Sequence record: OP172791
DNA: 64,000 nt
Source: Escherichia phage ECO340P1
Direction: 5' to 3' (one strand)
Position 1 is the first letter of the stretch, and each line of letters starts with the position of its first letter. Shown piece after piece: positions 8,315-20,018 of the stretch. Both the position numbers and the translations under genes were made by a program. The notes beneath the pieces are model-generated. The model was not told the origin of the DNA. It saw nothing but the letters and a program-made list of their open reading frames with translations, and did not search any database.

Positions 8315-8878
8315 ATGATTTATTATATTACTCCCTATCTGACAGGAAATATCGGCAAGGCTATCAATGAAGCCATTGCCGTTCTTCCAGATGATAGTTG
8401 GGTGTGTTTAAGAGATACCGATACAATGTTCCTCCTACCTGATCAACCATCTATGCTTGAAGAGCTTGTTATGTCAAATCCGCCTTTTGATGTAATAGGT
8501 GCAACTTGTAACAGGTTAGGCAGTGGTTATCAGCTTTTCTCTAACCAAATTAACGATGATCCAGATATTCTAAACCATATAGAATATGCTAAGATTGCAA
8601 GAGAATATCATAAAGTGAGTGTTGAAGAAGTTCCTTTCGGAACACCTCTAGCAGGTTTCTTCTTGCTTTTTAGAAAATCATTGTGGAATGAAATTCCTTT
8701 CGAAGAAAAATCTATCCAATTCGACTTAATTTTCTCTCGCACTTTACATGAAAAAGGAAAGAGGTTAGGATTGATGCGGGGAATGTATCTGTTTCACATT
8801 TACAGATTAGGTCAAACAAATCCTCAACGGTCTATACATCATTTATTACACTGTCATGATCACAGTAAAACTATTTAG
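8315..8878 (+). CDS. hypothetical protein, possibly glycosyltransferase-related
   Basis: 187-aa ORF with GGAGGGGAGA RBS; first gene of a glycosyltransferase block; no firm motif. Confidence 0.4.
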   Translation: MIYYITPYLTGNIGKAINEAIAVLPDDSWVCLRDTDTMFLLPDQPSMLEELVMSNPPFDVIGATCNRLGSGYQLFSNQINDDPDILNHIEYAKIAREYHKVSVEEVPFGTPLAGFFLLFRKSLWNEIPFEEKSIQFDLIFSRTLHEKGKRLGLMRGMYLFHIYRLGQTNPQRSIHHLLHCHDHSKTI

Positions 8879-8886
8879 GAGAGAAA

Positions 8887-9570
8887 ATGGAAAATATTAA
8901 AATTGGAGTGGGTGTTATCACTGTAGGTGTCCGTCCACTTAAAGACTACCTTGTAACAGATCCACGTGCAGATTTTCGAGTATTCAACGATCCAGATCGT
9001 AAAGGTGTAGCTTATGCCAGGAATGAACTTATGCACCAGTTTTATGAAGAAGGTTATGATTATTGGTTTATTTTTGACGACGATTGCTACCCAGTCATGG
9101 AGGGATGGGAAACATACTTTGTAGGTCAAGCTGTCTCTGGAGGATGGGATTTCTTTGGTATGCCGGAGTATTTCAAAGATAAAGTTGTTGGAAGCAAAGG
9201 AGAAGTTATTCTCTGGGAACTTGCAATGTGTCAATTTGCAATGTATTCTCGTGCCGTTGTTGAGAAGATGGGTTATTTCCGTCCTTACACTCACGGCTAT
9301 GGTTTTGAAGATGCTGAATGGGGACACCGTTTGCAAGCTGCTGGTTTGAATCATGGTATTCAGGCAACACCTTGTCCACTTCGTATCATGGCTTATATCC
9401 ACCCAGACGATGTTTTTGGAAACAATCCTATGCCTTTTGCTAATCTGACAAAAGAAGAGAAAGAAGCTGCTATCGGGATTAACTGGGAAGAATATAAAGC
9501 ATCTTTAGAGGATATTAAAAATGGGAAAATCCGAATTTCCTATGAGGAGGCACTGGCACATGTCAAATAA
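8887..9570 (+). CDS. glycosyltransferase, GT-A fold (family 2-like)
   Basis: N-terminal beta-alpha-beta region GVGVITVGVR and DxD-type motif FDDDC. Confidence 0.55.
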   Translation: MENIKIGVGVITVGVRPLKDYLVTDPRADFRVFNDPDRKGVAYARNELMHQFYEEGYDYWFIFDDDCYPVMEGWETYFVGQAVSGGWDFFGMPEYFKDKVVGSKGEVILWELAMCQFAMYSRAVVEKMGYFRPYTHGYGFEDAEWGHRLQAAGLNHGIQATPCPLRIMAYIHPDDVFGNNPMPFANLTKEEKEAAIGINWEEYKASLEDIKNGKIRISYEEALAHVK

Positions 9571-10507
9571 AAAATGGTCTAAACTAAAAATTGATGCAAA
9601 ACCTCATAGCGGTTGTGACTATCATCGTATTGTTATGCCATTTAACAACAATAATTTTCAACCTAAGAAAGATATTGTTGTGTTTAACCGTATCCACTCT
9701 AAAGGTGCAGAATACGTTTTATCTTTGAAACGTCAAGGTGTTAAGGTTGTTGTAGATTTAGATGATTTTTACCAACTTAATCCAGAGCATTATTTAGCAA
9801 GTCTATACGAGTCAAACACTCATGCTATTGTAGCTATGGTTAAGCTTGCTGATGTGGTTATTGTGACTACAGAATATTTGGCATATAAGATCCGTCACTT
9901 AAATAGAAATGTCGTTGTGATCCGAAATGCACTTCCTTTTGATAGCGGACAATTCACTTTGTCAAATGATCGTTCATCCGGTACCCCTGTTGTATGGGCT
10001 GGCGGTGCTAGTCACGAACCAGATTTACGACTAGTCTCTAATACTTTCGATGATGAACTTCTTACTATTGCGGGATATGAAGCATCACAAAGCATCACGG
10101 GACAAGAGTGGATTAAGATTCGCAGAAATTTACCAAATGCCAAATATAAAGCTGCTGTAAAAGATTTAGATAATTACATGAGTGTTTACGAAAGTCATGC
10201 TATTGCTATAGCTCCTTTGGTAGACAATGATTTTAATAATTGTAAAAGTAATCTCAAAATCCTGGAAGCTGGAGCAAAAGGTATTCCGATTATTTGTTCT
10301 AAGGTATTACCTTATTTTAACCCTGTAGATGCTCGCGCTGTTGCTTACGCAGAGAATAAAGCAGAATGGCATTACGAAATTGTTAAGCTTCTTCGCAATC
10401 CAAACTATCGGGAAGATCGTGGCTTGTTCTTGGCTGAACATGTTCGAACACATTATAATCTGGCAGATGCAAACGAGTTGCGACGCCAGGTTATTGAAAG
10501 TTTGTAG
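9560..10507 (+). CDS. glycosyltransferase, GT-B fold (GT1/GT4-like), paralog of 10515-11459
   Basis: ATG at 9560 after GAGGAGG; C-terminal KSNLKILEAGAKGIPIICS resembles the GT-B nucleotide-sugar binding motif; clear paralogy with the next gene. Confidence 0.55.
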   Translation: MSNKKWSKLKIDAKPHSGCDYHRIVMPFNNNNFQPKKDIVVFNRIHSKGAEYVLSLKRQGVKVVVDLDDFYQLNPEHYLASLYESNTHAIVAMVKLADVVIVTTEYLAYKIRHLNRNVVVIRNALPFDSGQFTLSNDRSSGTPVVWAGGASHEPDLRLVSNTFDDELLTIAGYEASQSITGQEWIKIRRNLPNAKYKAAVKDLDNYMSVYESHAIAIAPLVDNDFNNCKSNLKILEAGAKGIPIICSKVLPYFNPVDARAVAYAENKAEWHYEIVKLLRNPNYREDRGLFLAEHVRTHYNLADANELRRQVIESL

Positions 10508-10514
10508 GTGAAGT

Positions 10515-11459
10515 ATGGGACAAATAATTCTTGACAATCGTAACGGAATCAATTATAGTGTCTGCGATTTCCATAGGGTAGTGCTGCCTTACTCAAGGCA
10601 GTTCTCTTCACAACCTAAATACAACGTTTTCGTTTTTAACGGAGTGCCAACAAAAGGTAAAGAGGGCTTTTTAGCCCTTAAAAACCTAGGCTTTAAAATG
10701 GTTATGGATTTGGATGACTCTTTAGTTATTCCAAAAGGACACATGTTAGAAGGTATTTTTGAATCAGGTATTCGTGAACATTTAAAATGGTTTTTAGAGC
10801 ACAGTGATCTTGTTACAACTACGACACCTGCCTTGCAAGTTGAACTTTCACAATACAATGATAATGTGCACATAATCCCTAATGGACTTCCTTATGACGA
10901 AGGTCAATTTGTGTTGACCCGTGATCGCTACTCCAAAACTCCATTAGTCTGGGCTGGAAGTGAAACACATAAGCAAGATTTGGCTATCTTGCCCGATTTT
11001 GGTAAAGATCTTACAATATGTGGTTTTCGTAGGGATTCTGAAGTTTTAAGTAGTCGTGAATGGTCTGTAATCAGAGAAAATGTAGCACCAACTTGTGTTT
11101 ATGAAGGTGTAAGACCATATGCCAACTACATGGAATCTTACGATGGTCATCAAATCAGTCTTGCGCCACTGATTGATAACGTGTTTAATAATGCAAAAAG
11201 CAATCTTAAAATTCTTGAGGCAGGTGCTAAGGGTTTACCTTTGATCTGTTCTCCTCGTGAGAATTATCATACACAAGAGTTTAAAGATCTGTTGTTCTTT
11301 GCTGAAACACCTTCCGAGTGGAAAGATATTACGGAATACTTATTAAGTGCTCCCGATGTTTGCATGGAGAAAGGATTAGCATTAGCTAAGTATGTCAGGA
11401 CTCATTATCACATTGATGTGTTGAATGAGCGTCGTAGACTTTTATTTGAGGAGCTATAA
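10515..11459 (+). CDS. glycosyltransferase, GT-B fold (GT1/GT4-like), paralog of 9560-10507
   Basis: Shares CDYHRIVMPF/CDFHRVVLPY, PVVWAGGASHEPDL/PLVWAGSETHKQDL and KSNLKILEAGAKG motifs with the upstream gene. Confidence 0.55.
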   Translation: MGQIILDNRNGINYSVCDFHRVVLPYSRQFSSQPKYNVFVFNGVPTKGKEGFLALKNLGFKMVMDLDDSLVIPKGHMLEGIFESGIREHLKWFLEHSDLVTTTTPALQVELSQYNDNVHIIPNGLPYDEGQFVLTRDRYSKTPLVWAGSETHKQDLAILPDFGKDLTICGFRRDSEVLSSREWSVIRENVAPTCVYEGVRPYANYMESYDGHQISLAPLIDNVFNNAKSNLKILEAGAKGLPLICSPRENYHTQEFKDLLFFAETPSEWKDITEYLLSAPDVCMEKGLALAKYVRTHYHIDVLNERRRLLFEEL

Positions 11460-11737
11460 TGATTAACACTTTTGATTTTGAATACACCACTCGTAACGGG
11501 AAAGCCTTAGTTGTGGAGGTGGATTACTATTATGAAGAGCCTAACCCGCTTTCTCGTGAAAGTGATTGGGATTACCACGGAGGGCTTTTAATTGACGGTA
11601 TTCGTTTTTATGAAGGCTCTACAGAAGTTTTTGAAAAAGATTTAAATGTAACTGTAGCAGAAATTGCTTTCCAATTTAGAAAGCATATGGAAGAACTAGA
11701 AGCAGAATATATGATGGAGACTAACGAACCATTTTAA
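11459..11737 (+). CDS. hypothetical protein
   Basis: 92-aa ORF with overlapping start. Confidence 0.4.
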   Translation: MINTFDFEYTTRNGKALVVEVDYYYEEPNPLSRESDWDYHGGLLIDGIRFYEGSTEVFEKDLNVTVAEIAFQFRKHMEELEAEYMMETNEPF

Positions 11738-14061: not shown

Positions 14062-14856
14062 TTGAGCAAGTTGAACACACTTGATCAATATTACACTAAC
14101 CCCGCTTATGCGGGGTTCTTATGTGATAAGATCAAAGAAATTTTTGGAGAGGAAGCTAACTACGTAGAACCATCTGCGGGAGAAGGAGCTTTCTCTTCTT
14201 GTTTTAAAAACATAACTTCTTTTGATATTGACCCTAAGTTTGAAGATTGTATTGAGGCAGATTTTTTAGCTCAATCTGTTGAGTCTGTTGGTAGTGTAAC
14301 TGCTTTTGTCGGTAATCCTCCATTTGGAAAAAATGCTAGTCTTGCCATTAAATTCTTTAACCATTGTGCTGAAATGCTGGATAACGAAGGTGGTATTTGT
14401 TTTATCTTGCCTCGCACATTTCAAAAAATCTTTTTTGCACACAAGCTAAATCCCCATATGCATCTTCTTTACGAAGAAGAATGTCCAAAAGGATCTTTTA
14501 TTCTTCATGGAGAACCTTGGGATGTTCCTTGTGTATTCCAGGTATGGATTAAACGCAACGAGAAGCGTTCTCCCGTTGTTTTAGGAGAGAATCGACTATT
14601 CGTATTAGGTAACAGTAAAGACTACGATATAGCCGTTAGGAGAGCGGGAGCAAGTGCAGGTAAAGTGTTATCAGAAGAAGATTCTTTATCTGAAGCATCT
14701 ACCTATTTTTTAAAAGCCTTGACTTCTGATCTTAAAACGCGTATCATTGAGGCTTACCCGTTACTTAAAGCTGAAGCTAGTAAAACTGCGGGAGTAAGAA
14801 GTTTAAGTTTAAAAGAACTTCAGTGGGTTCTGGAGAACATTAGAAAGGAGGAATAG
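14062..14856 (+). CDS. DNA amino-methyltransferase (N6-adenine or N4-cytosine)
   Basis: TTG start after AAGGAGGA; SAM-binding-like EPSAGEGAF and catalytic NPPF motifs. Confidence 0.6.
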   Translation: MSKLNTLDQYYTNPAYAGFLCDKIKEIFGEEANYVEPSAGEGAFSSCFKNITSFDIDPKFEDCIEADFLAQSVESVGSVTAFVGNPPFGKNASLAIKFFNHCAEMLDNEGGICFILPRTFQKIFFAHKLNPHMHLLYEEECPKGSFILHGEPWDVPCVFQVWIKRNEKRSPVVLGENRLFVLGNSKDYDIAVRRAGASAGKVLSEEDSLSEASTYFLKALTSDLKTRIIEAYPLLKAEASKTAGVRSLSLKELQWVLENIRKEE

Positions 14857-17453
14857 TGAGTAAGTTTACATGGGATATTGAAGCAAACGGATTGTTGAAT
14901 AATGACACTATTGATTATTTAGCTAGTCCTTATCGTCTCAAAGACACATTTCAAATGCACTGTATTGTCTTAGAGAACCATGAAACAGGAGAAATAGTAG
15001 CTTTCCACGATGGCCCTAAATACATCTTTGATGGGCGTCCTTACGAAGAGTCAGATGGTAAATACACATATGTTCTTAAAGAGTATGTGGCGCAAGATTA
15101 CACACATTTTCAACTAAAAGATTTCCCAGATTTTATTAATCATGAAGGTTATTTTAAAGACAAGCCTGAATATCTAGTTGAAATGGCTGTGGCTCACAAC
15201 GGTATCAACTACGACTGGTTGGCTACAAAACTGTTTTATGGATTAGATTACAGTGTTAAATATAATACGTGGGGCAAAAATAAGGTAAAACTTATTGACT
15301 CCTTGATTTTGAGTAAAGTGTTAAACCCAGATCGAAAGATTGAGGGCAAATCAGGACATAGCTTGGCAGCACTTTCTCGAAAAGCAGGTGGTGATGTAAA
15401 AATAGATTTCCGTAAAGAGATTCCAGAAGAAGATCGATTTAAGACTTTTGCTGCGGATATGCTTTATTACTGTATCTATGACAACAAAGCCAATACGAGC
15501 GTATATAATTACCTTATGGAAGAATGGGGTGATTATGATAAATGGGAAGGTCCATTTGAACTTGAACAACGTGTAGCAGACATTATTACACGCCAGGAAC
15601 ACCGTGGGTTTGCTTTTAACATGAAACAAGCAGAAGAGAACCTTGCTTTTTTGGATGCAGAAATGGAGCGTCTTCGTTTACTCGTTGAGCCTATTTTGCC
15701 ACCTAAACCAGCAACAAAAGGTTATCTTAAGGCTTTTATTCCACCTAAGTTGCAAATTAAAAAGAACTTAGAGCCAACTAACCATATGATCAATTTTGCT
15801 AAGAAACATGATGGTCATTTGGAAGAGAGGGATGGCGATTGGTGGTTAGTTATGTTGGGGAAAGAGTGGAAACTGCCAGTTGCAGCAGATGAGCCTCTAT
15901 GTGATCCTAACATTCCTGCAACATTGAACGATACAACCCATATTAAAAACTGGCTTGTAGGATTAGGTTGGGTACCGTCTGAATATAAAGATAAAGACTT
16001 GACGCTTAAATCTGGCACCAAAATTAAAAAGAGCGAGGAAGAACTTCAGAAAGGTATTAGAGCTTACGTTGAGCAAACTCTATCTTCTAATTTTTGTCAG
16101 GATCGTTGTGATCATCTGGAGTGCACACCGGAAACTTTGGAAAGGAAGATTCAAGAGCGTATAGCAAAAGGTAAAGGTCGCGGTCTTAAAGTATTGACTA
16201 ACCCATGTTTTACCAAAGGTCAGGAAAAAGAAATTTGTCCTAACCTGCAAGCTTTGGGTGAGAAATTTCCTTATGCTACACAGATTGTAGAATACTTAAC
16301 GTATAAGCATCGTAGGAACTCTATTTTAGGTGGCGGTGCTGATTGGGAAGAAGATGAAGAAGATCAAGAATACGATAAAGGTTTCTTAGCCGCAGTAAGG
16401 GCGGATGGGCGTATTCCTACACCAGCCGCTACATGTGATGCTGCAACCTCTCGTATGAAACATAGATCTGTAGCTAATATTCCTCGTGTCACATCTTTGT
16501 TTGGATGGGAGATGCGTAACTTGTTTGGTGTAGAGGTTCCTAAATACTTCCAGATCGGCTACGACTTCGACTCTTTGGAAGCAAAAATTGAATCACATTA
16601 CTGTTGGCGGTACGAGCCGGAGCCACACGAGTATTGTAACGCTCTGTTGTTAGAGAAACCTAATGATGTTCACACAATGATGGCAAAACGTATCACTGAA
16701 ACTATTGGACGTAAATTTGAACGTAGTCCTGCTAAATCTGTTAAGTATGGTATTACCTATGGTGCACAAGCCGACAAGGTTGCTAAAACAATTGGTAGCG
16801 ACAAGTTTACAGGTCAATTGGTGTTCGATGCTTTCTGGGAAGCTGCATTCCCATTGGCGCGTCTTAAAGAACGTTTAAACGATTTCTGGGTTAAGACTGG
16901 TAAACAATATGTTTTGGGTATTGACGGTCGTAAGGTTCCTACTCGTTCTGCTCACGCGATTCTTAACTCTCTGTTCCAAAGCGGTGGGGTTATCTGTGCT
17001 AAACGTGCAATGGTTATTTATGATGACATGATCGAAGAAGAAGGGCTAAGTGTTGACTTCTTTAAAGATGACTGGAAGAATAAAGACTTCGTGCAACAAA
17101 TGATTGCATATCACGATGAAGCCCAGCTTGAAGTTTCTCGTAACCTTGTAGAATTCAAATGGTTTTCACCTGAATCATTAGGTTGGAAGAAAGTAGACGA
17201 TCCTGAAGAACAAAAGAAAATTGATAAAGAATGCCTTGCTAAAGTCGAAGAATGGAAGCATAATAAGGAAAAAGAGACAGGGCAAATTTGGGCTAACATT
17301 CATGAATCTCCCAAAGGTGGATGGTTTACAGCCTATAGTCGGGCAGGTGAACTTGCTGCTTTAGCTGTTACTAAAGCTGGAGAATTTTACAATCTTAATG
17401 TTCAGCTTACTGCTGGATATGACGTGGGGAATTCCTGGGCCAGTTGTCACTAA
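14856..17453 (+). CDS. family A DNA polymerase with 3'-5' exonuclease domain
   Basis: Exo I motif TWDIEANGL; polymerase motifs YDFDSLEAKI (A), KSVKYGITYGAQ (B), YHDEAQLEV (C). Confidence 0.85.
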   Translation: MSKFTWDIEANGLLNNDTIDYLASPYRLKDTFQMHCIVLENHETGEIVAFHDGPKYIFDGRPYEESDGKYTYVLKEYVAQDYTHFQLKDFPDFINHEGYFKDKPEYLVEMAVAHNGINYDWLATKLFYGLDYSVKYNTWGKNKVKLIDSLILSKVLNPDRKIEGKSGHSLAALSRKAGGDVKIDFRKEIPEEDRFKTFAADMLYYCIYDNKANTSVYNYLMEEWGDYDKWEGPFELEQRVADIITRQEHRGFAFNMKQAEENLAFLDAEMERLRLLVEPILPPKPATKGYLKAFIPPKLQIKKNLEPTNHMINFAKKHDGHLEERDGDWWLVMLGKEWKLPVAADEPLCDPNIPATLNDTTHIKNWLVGLGWVPSEYKDKDLTLKSGTKIKKSEEELQKGIRAYVEQTLSSNFCQDRCDHLECTPETLERKIQERIAKGKGRGLKVLTNPCFTKGQEKEICPNLQALGEKFPYATQIVEYLTYKHRRNSILGGGADWEEDEEDQEYDKGFLAAVRADGRIPTPAATCDAATSRMKHRSVANIPRVTSLFGWEMRNLFGVEVPKYFQIGYDFDSLEAKIESHYCWRYEPEPHEYCNALLLEKPNDVHTMMAKRITETIGRKFERSPAKSVKYGITYGAQADKVAKTIGSDKFTGQLVFDAFWEAAFPLARLKERLNDFWVKTGKQYVLGIDGRKVPTRSAHAILNSLFQSGGVICAKRAMVIYDDMIEEEGLSVDFFKDDWKNKDFVQQMIAYHDEAQLEVSRNLVEFKWFSPESLGWKKVDDPEEQKKIDKECLAKVEEWKHNKEKETGQIWANIHESPKGGWFTAYSRAGELAALAVTKAGEFYNLNVQLTAGYDVGNSWASCH

Positions 17454-17502: not shown

Positions 17503-17694
17503 ATGAGTTACGATTTAGATTGTTTTGGTATGCCTTACCTACCAGATGAATTTGAAGGTAAAGAAGAACGTGAATGGGACGATGGGGATATCCGTTGTTG
17601 GTCTTGTGGTAAAGATATGTCTTATGAACAACATATGCACAATGATGGTTTCTGCATACATTGCTATAATGAAATTGATCTGGAGGAAGATTAA
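17503..17694 (+). CDS. small Cys/His zinc-binding protein
   Basis: ATG at 17503 after AGGAGA; CWSC...CIHC pairs. Confidence 0.4.
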   Translation: MSYDLDCFGMPYLPDEFEGKEEREWDDGDIRCWSCGKDMSYEQHMHNDGFCIHCYNEIDLEED

Positions 17695-17855
17695 TGGGAA
17701 ATGGTATCATGATTTGCTATAAAATTGTGCGTATTGTCGGAGACGAAATTACCACTCGGTATTTTATGATAGAGTCTCAAGCCGATGAGGTTTACAATGA
17801 CTGGCTTGAAAAAGGTGGATACGATTTTGTATCTAAAGAAACTTTCCGTTTAGAA
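17694..17855 (+). CDS. hypothetical small protein (53 aa, below the ORF-track cutoff)
   Basis: ATG overlaps the upstream TAA; open through 17853. Confidence 0.25.
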
Positions 17856-17871
17856 GTATAAGGAGAAAACA

Positions 17872-18090
17872 ATGCGTAAATTAGTGAGCTTTAATGTTTC
17901 AATTCTTGTTGATGAACAAAATGAAGATGTTATTAAAGGTCTTGCAAATAAGATTGCAGGTGGAATGACGGAAGCTGAAGTGTGGGAAGAATGTGCTCGA
18001 CTTTATGAGGAAGGTGTTATTGAGGTCTTGGGGGATGAGATTAATATGGACGATGTTGTAAAAGTAACTGTGGAGCGTATCAATGACTAA
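17872..18090 (+). CDS. hypothetical protein
   Basis: 72-aa ORF with AAGGAGAA RBS. Confidence 0.45.
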   Translation: MRKLVSFNVSILVDEQNEDVIKGLANKIAGGMTEAEVWEECARLYEEGVIEVLGDEINMDDVVKVTVERIND

Positions 18091-18676
18091 ATCAAAACAA
18101 ATCAATATTGCCAAAGAAATTCTTACCGTATTAAAGATCGCTGATCCTAATTCTGTCTTGGCTGGCGGTGCTGTTCGTGATTGGCGTATTCTTGATATTG
18201 CTGGACGTGATCTGGATTTCTATACATCCCTTCCTGCACATCGGACTGAAGAACAAATACAAGGATTAATTGCATCTGCTTTAATGGGAACCAATATTCG
18301 TAAACTAGGAAACAAAGAGGCTTCTGACAATTATGAAGGTGTTACTGGTCTTAAACACGTTTTTGAGTTTGAACGTGATGGTCAGCTTTGCAACCTTATG
18401 ATTATGGAACCAAGCGTAATGACAACCTTTCTAAATGAGTTCGATCTGTCCATCTGCCAGGCTGCATTTGATGGGAAGGATTGTTATTATTCTAAAGATT
18501 TTGAAACAACCTTGGAAACAGGGATCTGCTTCTTGCACAAAGACGTTAGAGAAGATGCCAAACACGTTATTAAAATTGCTACACGTTTCCCATATCTTCG
18601 TTTTGTGAAAGAGGTTAAGGTTCCACGTCCACCTCAAGTAGATACCAGATTGGAAGAAGATGATATTCCTTGGTAA
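18083..18676 (+). CDS. nucleotidyltransferase (Pol-beta superfamily, CCA-adding enzyme head-domain-like)
   Basis: LAGGAVRDW...GRDLDF matches the GGxVRD ... DxD signature of tRNA nucleotidyltransferase / poly(A) polymerase head domains. Confidence 0.55.
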   Translation: MTKSKQINIAKEILTVLKIADPNSVLAGGAVRDWRILDIAGRDLDFYTSLPAHRTEEQIQGLIASALMGTNIRKLGNKEASDNYEGVTGLKHVFEFERDGQLCNLMIMEPSVMTTFLNEFDLSICQAAFDGKDCYYSKDFETTLETGICFLHKDVREDAKHVIKIATRFPYLRFVKEVKVPRPPQVDTRLEEDDIPW

Positions 18677-18703
18677 TTAAAGCTTGACAATATTAAACAT
18701 TTT
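18674..18703 (+). promoter_or_regulatory. sigma70-like promoter (TTGACA-N18-TAGGAT)
   Basis: -35 TTGACA at 18674-18679, -10-like TAGGAT at 18698-18703. Confidence 0.45.
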
Positions 18704-18721
18704 ATGATAGGATAGCATTCA

Positions 18722-19114
18722 ATGACTGAACGTTCTAAGATAGCTGTTGAAACTGTTTATGGAAACTATACCAGTTTGACACTAGTTGAGAAAAATGTTG
18801 TAGGTCTTGACAACTCTTTTTATTTTCAAATTTTGGTTATTCAAGGTGGAAACAAGAAGCTAACTGCTCGTGTTGAAACATCTGAAATAATTGAAACCAC
18901 TGTTACAAACAAAGAATTCATTTCACTGCAAGATACAATCCGAAACGTTATAGACGAAGAAGGCAAAGCTGCCACAATTAAACTCGGAGGTTTCCCAGTG
19001 CAAATAGTTCATTTTCCTAATGGTGAAATTGGAGTTGGAATAGGTAAAGGTAAATACCTGTTAGAGCAAGATGATATGGAAAGACTCCGTTCTTTCTGTG
19101 CAAAATTAATGTAA
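18722..19114 (+). CDS. hypothetical protein
   Basis: 130-aa ORF downstream of the promoter. Confidence 0.45.
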   Translation: MTERSKIAVETVYGNYTSLTLVEKNVVGLDNSFYFQILVIQGGNKKLTARVETSEIIETTVTNKEFISLQDTIRNVIDEEGKAATIKLGGFPVQIVHFPNGEIGVGIGKGKYLLEQDDMERLRSFCAKLM

Positions 19115-19130
19115 TGTAGAGGAGATAATA

Positions 19131-20018
19131 ATGTCCGTAATTAATACTGAAACTGATCGTAAAGGCAAAACCGTAACTTATGCAACTGGTATCGTAGACT
19201 ACGTTAAACTGGATAAATTCGCTGAACCTAAAACTTTTCATTGGGAAGGAAAAACGATTGTTTCAACTCACCGAGCTTCTCTTGTTCTGAAAGAGAAAGG
19301 TGCTAAACCAGATGAGAAAGGTGTTTGGATTTCTCTTGGTGACATTGAACTGAAAGAAGGTTATGAAAACCTGCAAGTCAAAGAAGGTGATAATTGGATC
19401 ACTATTGAAAAAGGTGTAGAAGTAAGTATTGATATTGATCGCGTTGATAATAAAGGCGGTAAAACTTACTACAATACTAAAAAATCTCGTATTACAGTAT
19501 TGTCTACCGATGGTGTTCAGAAGTCTAACAAATCTTCTGGCAATAAAGGTTCCAACGATGCTGCTCCTAAGCAATCCTATAAAAAACGTGATACTGTAGG
19601 TCTGGAAACTGGTCACGCAGTAAATGGTGCACTGGAACTGATTCGTAATGGTGTTAAAGGCGATGCTTTCGATATCGCTGGGGTTGTTCAATCTGCAACT
19701 GTCACGCTGAAATCGGAAATTGCTGAATCTCGTGGCGTTGATATTAATGATTATGATCTTGGGGCATCTGTTGGTCACGCTATTCTTAATGCTTGTAAAG
19801 ACCATACCATTAAGACTGTATCTGTAGAAGATCTGATTGACTCTGCTCGTAAAGTTCTAGCTCTGTCTGATAAAGTTGCTGCTGCCATTCGTGGTTCCGC
19901 AGAACAACCTAAGAAAGAAGAGAAGAAAGAAGTTAAAAAGCCTGAACCACAACCAGAACCAACTCCAAGCAATCAAGAAGAACCTCCAATGGACTTCGAT
20001 GATGATATTCCATTCTGA
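19131..20018 (+). CDS. single-stranded DNA-binding protein with acidic C-terminal tail
   Basis: C-terminus MDFDDDIPF is identical in pattern to the bacterial SSB protein-interaction tail; preceded by a Pro/Glu-rich linker. Confidence 0.6.
   Translation: MSVINTETDRKGKTVTYATGIVDYVKLDKFAEPKTFHWEGKTIVSTHRASLVLKEKGAKPDEKGVWISLGDIELKEGYENLQVKEGDNWITIEKGVEVSIDIDRVDNKGGKTYYNTKKSRITVLSTDGVQKSNKSSGNKGSNDAAPKQSYKKRDTVGLETGHAVNGALELIRNGVKGDAFDIAGVVQSATVTLKSEIAESRGVDINDYDLGASVGHAILNACKDHTIKTVSVEDLIDSARKVLALSDKVAAAIRGSAEQPKKEEKKEVKKPEPQPEPTPSNQEEPPMDFDDDIPF

Follow-up and report, generated by a model that had tools for sequence, protein, structure and literature searches.

A predicted nucleotidyltransferase related to the anti-Gabija protein Gad2 in the replication module of a Phapecoctavirus

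A 197-residue protein, hitherto labelled as a tRNA nucleotidyltransferase, is in the reading that we favour (at a probability of roughly 45%) a short, distant phage Gad2-like nucleotidyltransferase which probably serves counter-defence, its family being an offshoot of the class II head domain. The window analysed here is a 64,000-nucleotide stretch of Escherichia phage ECO340P1 (OP172791), a phAPEC8-like Phapecoctavirus, and the ORF lies on its plus strand (18083..18676, stop codon included), beginning with ATG. Proteins 100% identical to its product are found in deposited Phapecoctavirus genomes, and the GenBank label has been 'putative tRNA nucleotidyl transferase / poly(A) polymerase' since the deposition of phAPEC8. 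The protein matches phrog_10174 (E 6.5e-63) and phrog_1614 (E 5e-11).

A GGAG ribosome-binding site (18072..18075, plus strand) stands 7 nt before the ATG, and the ATG itself overlaps the 3' end of the upstream ORF by 8 nt (upstream stop at 18088-18090), which suggests that the gene is translationally coupled to its neighbour. Promoter and terminator scans gave site numbers not above those in shuffled sequence. An earlier interpretation made from the letters alone (the sequence-only reading) had described a protein with a GGAVRD...DLD signature, devoid of the usual C-terminal body and encoded near replication genes, and all three observations were borne out. A six-frame translation of the window contains a single instance of the pattern GG.[VP]RD.{5,14}D.D, and 200 shuffles contain none. 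The protein ends at residue 197, and the body and tail of CCA enzymes, amounting to about 200 residues, are thus absent. Upstream, a family A DNA polymerase (DNA polymerase I; 14856..17453, plus strand) heads the same-strand gene run, and the annotated SSB gene (19131-20018) follows downstream.

An AlphaFold model built from a 147-sequence alignment replaced one built from 11 sequences, which had been poor in its C-terminal half. With this confident predicted model (pLDDT 90.4), the best 29 matches in a Foldseek search of the PDB were all class II CCA-, CC- or A-adding enzymes, and the nearest solved folds are those of class II CCA-adding and poly(A) enzymes, with alignments that span about half of these 340-520-residue proteins and TM-scores, normalised to the target, of 0.22-0.32. 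An N-terminal helix (residues 3-20, 18089..18142), in which Q6 and A10 are conserved across the family, aligns with the helix ahead of motif A both in class II CCA enzymes and in Gad2. Motif A itself, LAGGAVRDWRILDIAGRDLDFY (residues 26-47, 18158..18223), comprises the G28-G29 loop, R32, D33, a family-specific W34, D43 (18209-18211) and D45 (18215-18217), and no other stretch matches PF01743 or the CCA enzymes of the PDB by sequence. Searches of the PDB with sequence profiles of the family recovered only this motif of CCA enzymes, at marginal E-values of 0.002-0.03, and a Gad2 profile recovered nothing, so that no solved relative was found by sequence.

The residues of motif A are strongly constrained. 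Among 147 diverse members of 21-35% identity, G28, G29, D43 and D45 never vary, a pattern that points to selection on catalysis, and A27, A30, R32, D33 and W34 are conserved at 90% or more. D43 and D45 are the predicted metal-binding residues of an Asp-x-Asp site that is intact. A beta-hairpin (18365..18394) bears E95 (18365-18367), the probable third catalytic metal ligand, and cross-strand N104 (18392-18394). The strand of E95 precedes the one that bears the third carboxylate in class II enzymes, where the family has Gln or Asn at position 104; 79% of members carry Gln there, as does Gad2, and this protein has Asn. Position 95 is Asp or Glu in 71% of the family and non-acidic in 25-29%, and because of the latter, activity may differ among members. 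Position 104 is Asp in all four sequences with Lys or Arg at 95, and in one of two with Gly there; on the alignment, the two positions compensate for each other. The predicted catalytic carboxylates are present on alignment, D43 and D45 invariantly and E95 in the protein itself. That the protein is a catalytically dead scaffold or decoy, which would act by binding, for instance through an SSB-like tail competing for SSB partners, draws on the members with a non-acidic third ligand position and on the likeness of its C-terminus to a protein-interaction hub motif. Against the invariance of the glycines and aspartates at 21-35% identity, and with all three carboxylates in the query, we regard it as most improbable. 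The protein is rather a stand-alone nucleotidyltransferase of predicted Pol-beta fold, and probably an active one.

The remaining landmarks of class II enzymes are altered or missing. In hhalign alignments FDLSICQAAFD (residues 120-130, 18440..18472) stands opposite FDFTVCMGAFD of Gad2 and RRDFT(I/M)NA, the motif B of class II enzymes; F120, S123 and C125 within it are conserved at 75-86% in the family. Both arginines of the RRD motif are absent, the corresponding residues being E119-F120-D121, with D, P or S at position 121 across the family. The C-terminal core (residues 155-175, 18545..18607) consists of a helix with H161 and a near-invariant K164, followed by R168-F169-P170, which aligns with the invariant (F/Y)P of Gad2. 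The EDxxR motif D is not conserved: the protein has E157-D158-A-K-H161, positions 157 and 158 vary, and the arginine is replaced by His or Tyr in the family, while the alternative register at R168-F169-P170 holds no acidic residue.

These alterations bear on the proposal, put forward in the sequence-only reading, that the protein is a CCA-adding or CCA-repair enzyme which restores the 3'-CCA that host nucleases have trimmed from phage or host tRNAs. In its favour, every one of the nearest solved structures is a tRNA nucleotidyltransferase of class II, and in motif A the match is almost perfect; the phage carries ten tRNA genes or more; a distant member of the family has a ligase-like gene on one side and RtcB on the other, an RNA-repair context; and single-domain MenT toxins provide a precedent for a small nucleotidyltransferase that acts on tRNA acceptor ends (PMC11541572). 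Against it, the motifs that select ribose and the C and A bases, RRD and EDxxR, are not conserved in the family, and the neck helix bundle, body and tail are all missing, so that there is no tRNA-binding body. The expected PF01743 match does exist but remains below the gathering threshold (13.9 bits against 23) and covers residues 26-65 only; TIGR02692 scored 12.6 bits against a cut-off of 438.8, and only 20 of the 147 family members reach PF01743 at E <= 0.01. The two observations that the sequence-only reading had named as fatal to it, the want of any nucleotidyltransferase profile hit and of the catalytic carboxylates, gave no clean answer in either direction. The ten tRNA genes of the window are at 59060-60982, about 41 kb away, and a tRNA gene occurs within 6 kb at only five of 54 viral loci of the family. 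Members are also present in phages without any tRNA gene, namely Vibrio phage 1.235.O (whole genome) and Caulobacter phage ERS, and the host has its own Cca. The gene sits instead nearly always inside a replication module. A CCA enzyme tied to the phage tRNA set was thus not upheld, and we consider it very unlikely.

The Gad2-like reading draws instead on profile comparison. The family comprises more than 1,000 clusters of phage proteins of about 190 residues, and its profile aligned to the single sequence of SPbetaL7 Gad2 with a probability of 89% (hhalign; E 2e-6, 120 columns) and to a 9-sequence Gad2 alignment at 97.2% (E 4e-11, 113 columns). With the protein's own clade, the alignment to the Gad2 family reached 94.4% (E 9e-8) over 142 columns, from query residues 7-179 to Gad2 residues of about 12-154, and included the common FD(L/F)(S/T)(I/V)C and FP motifs. 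Against a class II profile, the family gave 83% over 42 columns only; this profile was shallow, being made of relatives of E. coli Cca at 71% identity or more together with three PDB sequences from HMMER alignments, and the extended, low-confidence part of the alignment was trusted only within motif A. The single 197-residue sequence did not reach significance against the Gad2 profile (E 0.009); both Gad2 and the protein match phrog_1614. Precomputed PF26128 (Gad2) matches are recorded for 54 of 120 listed family members (about 45%), and no precomputed PF01743 match is recorded for any of the 120. These PF26128 matches are mostly weak or faint, as on P0014, P0016, P0124 and P0131; one is recorded on P0009, 60% identical to the protein, and none on P0001, which is 98% identical. 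When Gad2 was searched by tblastn, 199 phage records matched, 189 of them over less than 80% of its length, and the partial matches listed lay in its N-terminal 200-220 residues. By these comparisons the family is homologous to the nucleotidyltransferase domain of Gad2 over nearly the whole core, and the protein is nearer to Gad2 than to the CCA-adding enzymes.

Knock-out of Gad2 renders SPbetaL7 sensitive to Gabija and a homolog restores resistance, and Gad2 carries a predicted nucleotidyltransferase domain (bioRxiv 10.1101/2023.05.01.538930). The closer kinship to Gad2 makes counter-defence a likelier role than tRNA repair, and the protein thus probably functions in counter-defence. The fallback suggestion of an anti-defence nucleotidyltransferase, which the sequence-only reading had offered beside CCA repair, is favoured by the domain homology, although the function itself is inferred. 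Literature searches, which included a review of February 2026, returned no biochemical study of the family of about 190 residues or of the mechanism of Gad2; a likeness to Gad2 accordingly predicts a phenotype rather than a chemistry. The possibility of a split Gad2, in which the 130-residue protein encoded downstream would represent the Gad2 C-terminal domain, was rejected (probability 0.1%). This conserved protein (18722..19114, plus strand; phrog_16560) always lies between the nucleotidyltransferase and SSB in this lineage, is unrelated to the Gad2 C-terminal domain by profile comparison and gave no relative in PDB or Pfam.

The position of the gene, within a module for DNA replication and repair, is conserved. 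The order of polymerase followed by nucleotidyltransferase recurs in distant phages, with the gene directly after the DNA polymerase in phi92, fHe-Kpn01 and loci L008 and L031, and after a 5'-3' exonuclease in loci L003, L028 and L030. A polymerase, primase-helicase, exonuclease, SSB or ligase lies within 6 kb at 44 of the 55 viral loci of at least 10 kb. This strong synteny with DNA polymerase, 5'-3' exonuclease, ligase and SSB genes, along with the SSB-like tail, would also be accounted for by a replication accessory without a defence role, which processes phage DNA ends, primers or nicks during replication or recombination. Its distribution, however, is patchy, KP34 lacking a member that the related fHe-Kpn01 possesses and only a minority of Autographiviridae carrying the gene (PMC7693777), and this fits an accessory or arms-race gene better than a core replication function. 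Given also the homology to an anti-defence protein, we hold a purely replicative role to be unlikely. A role in DNA modification, as speculated for a nucleotidyltransferase of Gordonclarkvirinae, was set aside, as nothing here links the fold to base modification.

A further possibility is a toxin-like enzyme directed at the host, which would add nucleotides to the 3' ends of host tRNA, RNA or DNA, or drain a nucleotide pool, and so bring host functions to a stop, independently of any defence system. Three relatives point in this direction: fHe-Kpn01 Gp22, which matches phrog_1614 at E 1.3e-39 and is encoded directly after the DNA polymerase, is toxic when over-expressed; Emajogi gp22 is cytotoxic at high induction; and SPbetaL7 Gad2 is itself toxic (bioRxiv 10.1101/2023.05.01.538930). 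The toxicity was nonetheless seen only under over-expression, and with Emajogi only at the highest induction, and PADLOC gave no match to AbiE/MenT-type or other defence nucleotidyltransferases. The conserved position in a replication module and the SSB-like tail are more in keeping with DNA transactions than with a shut-off of translation, and we judge a host-directed toxin to be unlikely.

The nuclease GajA is inhibited by nucleotides, according to published biochemistry. The protein could also be imagined as a synthase of small nucleotides that uses no polymer acceptor, its product either serving as a competitor ligand or decoy or keeping an NTP-inhibited nuclease such as GajA off. This idea is favoured by the small size of the protein, which could not accommodate a large substrate alone, and by the synthesis, in other phage nucleotidyltransferases, of competitor cyclic dinucleotides which block TIR-STING (bioRxiv 10.1101/2022.06.09.495361). 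The characterised phage enzymes, however, belong to the MNT clade and have a GS...SDxD motif in place of GGAPRDW...DLD, and no PADLOC or Pfam model of the cyclase families was matched. A small-molecule synthase is thus, to our judgement, also an unlikely account.

Beyond its core, the protein carries a C-terminal tail. A linker (residues 178-190) and a tip, EEDDIPW (residues 191-197, 18653-18673), together occupy 18614..18673, a region with pLDDT of 54-72, and among homologs of 59-98% identity the tip is conserved and the linker variable. EEDDIPW resembles the SSB tip DDDIPF, with Trp in place of the terminal Phe, and SSB-like ORFs of other phages end in DDIPW or EDIPW. The annotated phage SSB ends in DFDDDIPF (19992..20015, plus strand) and matches E. 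coli SSB at every one of the last 12 positions. When all six frames of the window were scanned for ORFs of 60 residues or more, only the SSB and the nucleotidyltransferase were seen to have such an acidic and aromatic C-terminal end. The tail, found in only about 9-15% of the family, is a new detail, and literature searches returned no precedent for a phage enzyme with an SSB-tip mimic. One could go further and envisage EEDDIPW as a true mimic, through which a minimal, template-independent nucleotidyltransferase would be anchored among the partners of SSB at the phage replication fork. There it would extend exposed DNA 3' ends or nicks with nucleotides, or else modify an SSB partner by nucleotidylation, so that end-sensing nuclease-helicase defences such as Gabija would fail to recognise or process replicating phage DNA. 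We regard this full scheme as speculative and improbable. Candidate anchoring partners would include, on the phage side, the polymerase and, on the host side, exonuclease I, RecQ, PriA and the chi subunit.

In terms of the Gad2-like reading, the enzyme would be produced together with the polymerase and SSB, and its two-metal centre would take an NMP from an NTP or dNTP and attach it to a 3'-OH acceptor. As the probable acceptor we favour a nucleic-acid end or nick on replicating phage DNA, with a small nucleotide or a protein as alternatives; isoelectric points did not discriminate between nucleic-acid and other acceptors. Such transfer could weaken a Gabija-type defence of the host, a nuclease-helicase system that responds to DNA ends or to the level of nucleotides. 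The disordered tail of the Phapecoctavirus clade, which ends in EEDDIPW, may act like an SSB tip and dock the enzyme onto SSB-tip-binding proteins, that is, at the replication fork.

If the reading is correct, the 'tRNA nucleotidyltransferase' label on genes of about 190 codons in many coliphages, Vibrio phages and podophages probably hides short Gad2-like enzymes, and a widespread annotation would be corrected. Gad2 is one of few anti-defence proteins predicted to be enzymes, and the 197-residue protein offers a minimal, single-domain member, tractable in E. coli, with which its chemistry could be worked out. Should the SSB-tip-like tail prove functional, it would give easy access to the partner of the enzyme, and true mimicry would supply both a mechanism for the Gad2 family and a new form of enzyme targeting through imitation of a hub motif. 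Phapecoctaviruses are used as therapeutic phage candidates, and knowledge of their counter-defence genes thus helps in predicting host range.

Among known systems, NP_344798.1 of Streptococcus pneumoniae (PDB 2LA3), a 191-residue stand-alone 'CCA-adding enzyme head domain', could not be related by sequence either to the family or to the Gad2 profile, and it adds no mechanism. The MenT/AbiEii toxins are a weaker structural match than the class II enzymes, and the protein, which has no antitoxin partner and lies in a phage replication context, matched no PADLOC or Pfam model of these, of the CD-NTases or of the MNT families. With the MNT-type enzymes of BCP1 and Av05 it has in common that these are minimal, phage-encoded nucleotidyltransferases used for counter-defence (bioRxiv 10.1101/2022.06.09.495361), but they form another clade, with GS-x-AY..SDxD rather than GGAPRDW...DLD and a different fold neighbourhood, and identity with such a cyclic-dinucleotide-making enzyme was set aside because the motifs differ.

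The best structural matches are bacterial poly(A) polymerase I and the tRNA nucleotidyltransferases of class II (PF01743 head; PDB 1MIV, 3H37, 1VFG and 3AQL among others). Motif A, GGxVRD...DxD, and the preceding helix align at the sequence level, and the strand with DFT(I/M)N has a recognisable counterpart. In contrast to them, the protein is a head only, without neck helices, body or tail, with RRD and EDxxR missing or not conserved, with the Pfam and NCBIfam cut-offs unreached and with no genomic link to tRNA genes. The small 'tRNA nucleotidyltransferases' of Autographiviridae (phrog_1614), such as Gp22 of Klebsiella phage fHe-Kpn01, those of Pectobacterium phages PP47 and Q19, and Pseudomonas phage Emajogi gp22, belong to the same PHROG at about 170-210 residues, likewise adjoin the DNA polymerase and are structural neighbours of the protein in BFVD; they are too divergent for direct BLAST and are without the EEDDIPW tail. 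A tblastn search from the Caulobacter member gave no bridge to the Klebsiella and Pectobacterium podophage proteins, the link being through phrog_1614 only, and relatives of Emajogi gp22 are annotated as members of the Gad2 family.

Gad2 itself (SPbetaL7; PF26128), for which alone anti-Gabija activity has been demonstrated, is a protein of 400 residues with a C-terminal domain of about 235 residues that the 197-residue protein lacks, and the homology covers only about 150 of the 400. It has GGAITS where the family retains a class II-like GGA(P/V)RDW, shows no obvious counterpart of E95, and is encoded in an anti-defence locus of a temperate Bacillus phage rather than in the replication module of a virulent coliphage. 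Both are nonetheless phage-encoded and have in common the N-terminal helix, the GG loop, the Asp-x-Asp strand, a conserved Gln on the next hairpin strand, and the FD(F/L)(T/S)(V/I)C and (F/Y)P motifs, and relatives of both proteins are toxic when over-expressed.

The open reading frame of the 197-aa nucleotidyltransferase runs, as the sequence-only reading had placed it, from an ATG at 18083 to a stop codon at 18674-18676, and the GGAVRD...DLD signature reported for it is present at residues 26-47 (LAGGAVRDWRILDIAGRDLDFY). Translated in six frames, the 64-kb window contains the pattern GG.[VP]RD.{5,14}D.D a single time, and none of 200 shuffles contains it. Across this region phAPEC8-like phages (genus Phapecoctavirus, Stephanstirmvirinae) show 98.6-99.9% identity, and GenBank already labels the identical proteins of phAPEC8 and many further copies 'putative tRNA nucleotidyl transferase / poly(A) polymerase' (RefSeq, 'nucleotidyltransferase'; other records, 'hypothetical protein'). 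The enzyme assignment made earlier thus repeated an existing annotation, itself putative; the gene and its family were in databases, and the Gad2 family had been described. Two of the phage-database entries appear to be from coliphages, which makes their host labels doubtful: 'Acinetobacter phage vB_AbaM_ABPW7' (H1/H27) shares 99.9% identity with the coliphage region studied here, and the genome of 'Campylobacter phage A110a' (H53) is phi92-like.

The location near replication genes was borne out, as the gene lies in a same-strand run beginning with a family A DNA polymerase (14856-17453, plus strand) and ending with an annotated SSB (19131-20018, plus strand). GGAG stands 7 nt 5' of the ATG, and the start codon overlaps the final codons of an upstream 72-aa ORF, so that translation is probably coupled to that of the preceding ORF within the run. 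Directly 3' of the polymerase is a 63-aa Cys-rich protein (17503-17694; CWSC...CIHC, zinc-ribbon-like; phrog_25582, of unknown function), followed by two conserved small ORFs (17694-17861 and 17872-18090). Between the nucleotidyltransferase and the SSB lies a 130-aa protein (18722-19114; phrog_16560) with an invariant GEIGxGIGxGKY motif, without a relative in Pfam or PDB and found in the same gene order in phi92 (gp157) and the viral loci L008 and L031. A sigma-70-like site (18684-18713; TTGACA, 18 nt, TAGGAT, extended TG) lies in the 45-nt gap that follows the stop codon of the nucleotidyltransferase, although in the promoter scan overall such sites were no commoner than in shuffles. Four consecutive 'glycosyltransferase' genes, labelled from the near-identical phage Mt1B1_P17 and positioned by correspondence with L001 1-3060, precede the polymerase by a few kb (about 8400-11460).

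An AlphaFold model built from a 147-sequence alignment (pLDDT 90.4, pTM 0.83) was searched against the PDB with Foldseek, and each of the 29 best matches was a class II enzyme that adds CCA, CC or A (E 3e-5 to 7.5e-3; query TM 0.45-0.59). On this model the protein is CCA-adding-type by fold, but by its sequence it is not a class II family member. The proposed head-domain profile, PF01743, did match, but only over residues 26-65 and at 13.9 bits, below the cut-off of 23; TIGR02692 scored 12.6 bits against a cut-off of 438.8, and family profiles aligned with PDB CCA enzymes over the N-terminal helix and motif A only (E 0.002-0.03). The catalytic carboxylates are in place, D43 and D45 being invariant across the family alignment together with G28 and G29, while conservation reaches at least 90% at A27, A30, R32, D33, W34, Q6, A10, Y84 and K164. 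Where class II enzymes have motif B, RRD, the query has E119-F120-D121 and so lacks the arginines, and E157-D158-x-x-H161 looks similar to class II EDxxR, yet its positions vary freely across the family. The third metal ligand is probably E95, which strand order would place one strand before that used by class II enzymes. An acidic residue, D or E, occupies position 95 in 71% of members, and the cross-strand position 104, normally Gln, is Asp in all four members with K or R at 95 and in one of the two with G. This compensation argues that a carboxylate at that site matters, and suggests that either hairpin strand (18365-18394) can provide the ligand. A nucleotidyltransferase fold with an intact active site we regard as very probable.

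It had been proposed that the protein might repair or tail the CCA ends of the phage's own tRNAs. The phage does carry ten tRNA genes (Met x2, Ile, Pro, Gln, Gly, Thr, Asn, Ser and Arg). The link to tRNA did not hold, for the cluster is 41 kb away on the minus strand (59060-60982), and relatives occur in tRNA-free phages: Vibrio phage 1.235.O (complete 47-kb genome) and Caulobacter phage ERS (no tRNA genes across essentially the whole genome). Any tRNA gene lay within 6 kb of the family gene in only 5 of 54 viral-contig loci. A CCA-repair enzyme is very unlikely. Of the five viral loci, unrelated to the window, that had any tRNA gene near a relative, four had tRNA-Arg(TCT), which the window's cluster also contains.

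An exhaustive HMM search returned 1,047 cluster representatives, of which 334 reached E <= 1e-10; almost all of them are stand-alone proteins, 175-220 aa long, that match profile positions 1-177. The isolate genomes that carry a member are those of phAPEC8-like and phi92-like Stephanstirmvirinae, several Vibrio phage groups, ICP1, and podophages of Caulobacter and Ralstonia. The gene is directly 3' of the DNA polymerase in phi92, fHe-Kpn01, L008 and L031; in L003, L028 and L030 it follows a gene for a 5'-3' exonuclease, overlapping the exonuclease end in L003 and L028. A polymerase, primase-helicase, exonuclease, SSB or ligase lies within 6 kb in 44 of the 55 loci of at least 10 kb, and the family gene belongs to the replication and repair module. 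This link, rather than one to tRNA genes, is new in being quantified.

Some relatives depart from this form. Vibrio phage ICP1 (H57-H65; BFVD F1D1P7, ORF223) has a truncated 137-aa protein matching query residues 4-127 only, the catalytic half without the C-terminal core. The metagenomic viral contig L029 (10001-10990) encodes a 329-aa member that is extended at its N-terminus and has the tail SFSDDDF, situated between a DNA-ligase-like gene and RtcB, the sole RNA-repair-like context seen; this locus also has thymidine kinase, NUDIX and dNMP kinase genes and a 5'-3' exonuclease-like protein ending EFDDDYDF.

The SSB-tip-like tail of the query is likewise new. The protein ends ...PRPPQVDTRLEEDDIPW, modelled with low confidence by AlphaFold, and its tip DDIPW is kept in homologs down to 59% identity, while the linker before it varies in sequence and length. 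The neighbouring phage SSB ends ...EEPPMDFDDDIPF (tip 19980-20015, EPPMDFDDDIPF), and since it shares its final 12 residues with E. coli SSB, it probably connects to the host's network of SSB partners, DDDIPF being the established hub motif by which SSB recruits partners (e.g. PMC5872125). PHROG 'SSB' matches to this protein are confined to its C-terminal ~45 residues, and its body matches phrog_4477, of unknown function. Among window ORFs of at least 60 aa in six frames, only the query and the SSB have acidic and aromatic ends. AEDDIPW and GEDIPW are the endings of SSB-like ORFs in other phages, and the terminal Trp would thus be a natural variant of the tip. Acidic-aromatic ends are enriched in the family: they were found in 24 of 264 members against 1 of 120 Cca controls and, within viral loci, in 11 of 71 members compared with 3% of background ORFs, counts that are not phylogenetically independent and that leave most members without such a tail. 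Separate clades have their own versions (ESPDVFNF, PWDEEF, SFSDDDF), and we infer that the tail is a lineage-specific docking device. In the viral contigs L039-L043 (members 34-35% identical) the nucleotidyltransferase ends ...ESPDVFNF. Four of these contigs have, ~500 bp downstream, an SSB-like ORF that ends ...DFDDDIPF or nearly so, and the fifth, L042, is too short to show one.

The closest relationship points to Gad2, the anti-Gabija protein of Bacillus phage SPbetaL7 (OQ921347.1, 109563-110765, 400 aa). In a precomputed Pfam table the Gad2 model PF26128 was assigned to 54 of the 120 best family members and PF01743 to none, with every match of reported strength weak or faint; PF26128 falls on P0009, a homolog 60% identical to the query, and weakly or faintly on the homologs P0014, P0016, P0124 and P0131. 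The family profile matched the single Gad2 sequence with 89% probability (E 2e-6, 120 columns), against 27% for E. coli Cca (E 7e-4, 24 columns), and a 9-sequence Gad2 alignment made from phage homologs with 97.2% (E 4e-11, 113 columns), against 83% for a class II alignment (E 9e-6, 42 columns). The Gad2 and class II alignments did not match significantly (15%, E 2e-3, 166 columns). The query's own clade of 11 sequences matched the Gad2 family with 94.4% probability (E 9e-8, 142 columns, query 7-179), and the query as a single sequence gave no significant match to the Gad2 profile. PHROGs provided an independent link: Gad2 matched phrog_1614 (8e-6) and phrog_4400, the query phrog_1614 (5e-11), and phi92 gp158 both. 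We put the probability that the query is a homolog of the Gad2 nucleotidyltransferase domain at roughly 0.8; the assignment of this Phapecoctavirus gene and a large short-form family to the Gad2 periphery, not to the CCA enzymes, is new. A 168-aa Gad2-N-like gene of S. thermophilus phages (L024, Streptococcus phage SW22, 470-976) sits between nuclease and SSB genes, recalling the SSB-adjacent position in the window.

Deletion of Gad2 renders SPbetaL7 Gabija-sensitive and a homolog brings resistance back; in the same study (bioRxiv 10.1101/2023.05.01.538930) the protein proved toxic and was predicted to contain a nucleotidyltransferase domain. According to a review of February 2026 (PMC12904381), Gad2 is one of the inhibitors with a mechanism 'yet to be elucidated'. 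Small podophage relatives have been noted as 'tRNA nucleotidyltransferases' of unknown role (PMC7693777). Gp22 of fHe-Kpn01, encoded immediately after the DNA polymerase and matching phrog_1614 (E 1.3e-39), is toxic in E. coli (PMC7291057), and the toxicity of three separate members suggests a real enzymatic activity on a host-relevant substrate. In the mechanism that we favour, the query is an active two-metal nucleotidyltransferase of the Gad2-like family, co-expressed with replication genes, that would transfer nucleotides to a 3'-OH, the likeliest acceptor being a nick or a nucleic-acid end at the fork, and so shield replicating phage DNA from Gabija-type nuclease-helicase defence; in the query's clade the SSB-tip-like tail could position the enzyme. 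A counter-defence role is possible, at slightly under even odds, and a DNA-end acceptor together with functional SSB-tip mimicry is unlikely. The query would be of use as a minimal, tractable way into an unsolved anti-defence mechanism.

Class II enzymes have a neck, body and tail, and the usual C-terminal body is indeed missing, as had been noted: the chain stops where the neck begins, without body or tail for holding tRNA. The C-terminal 235 residues of Gad2 are missing too; the adjacent 130-aa protein, considered as their supplier, is unrelated to that domain. The class II-like GGA(P/V)RD is kept by the family and lost in Gad2. Family EFDLSICQAAFD aligns with Gad2 TFDFTVCMGAFD, RFP with AFP, whose Pro is invariant among Gad2 relatives, and the alignments pair the Gln on the second hairpin strand. 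By sequence comparison, the family thus lies between the class II heads and Gad2, and nearer to Gad2.
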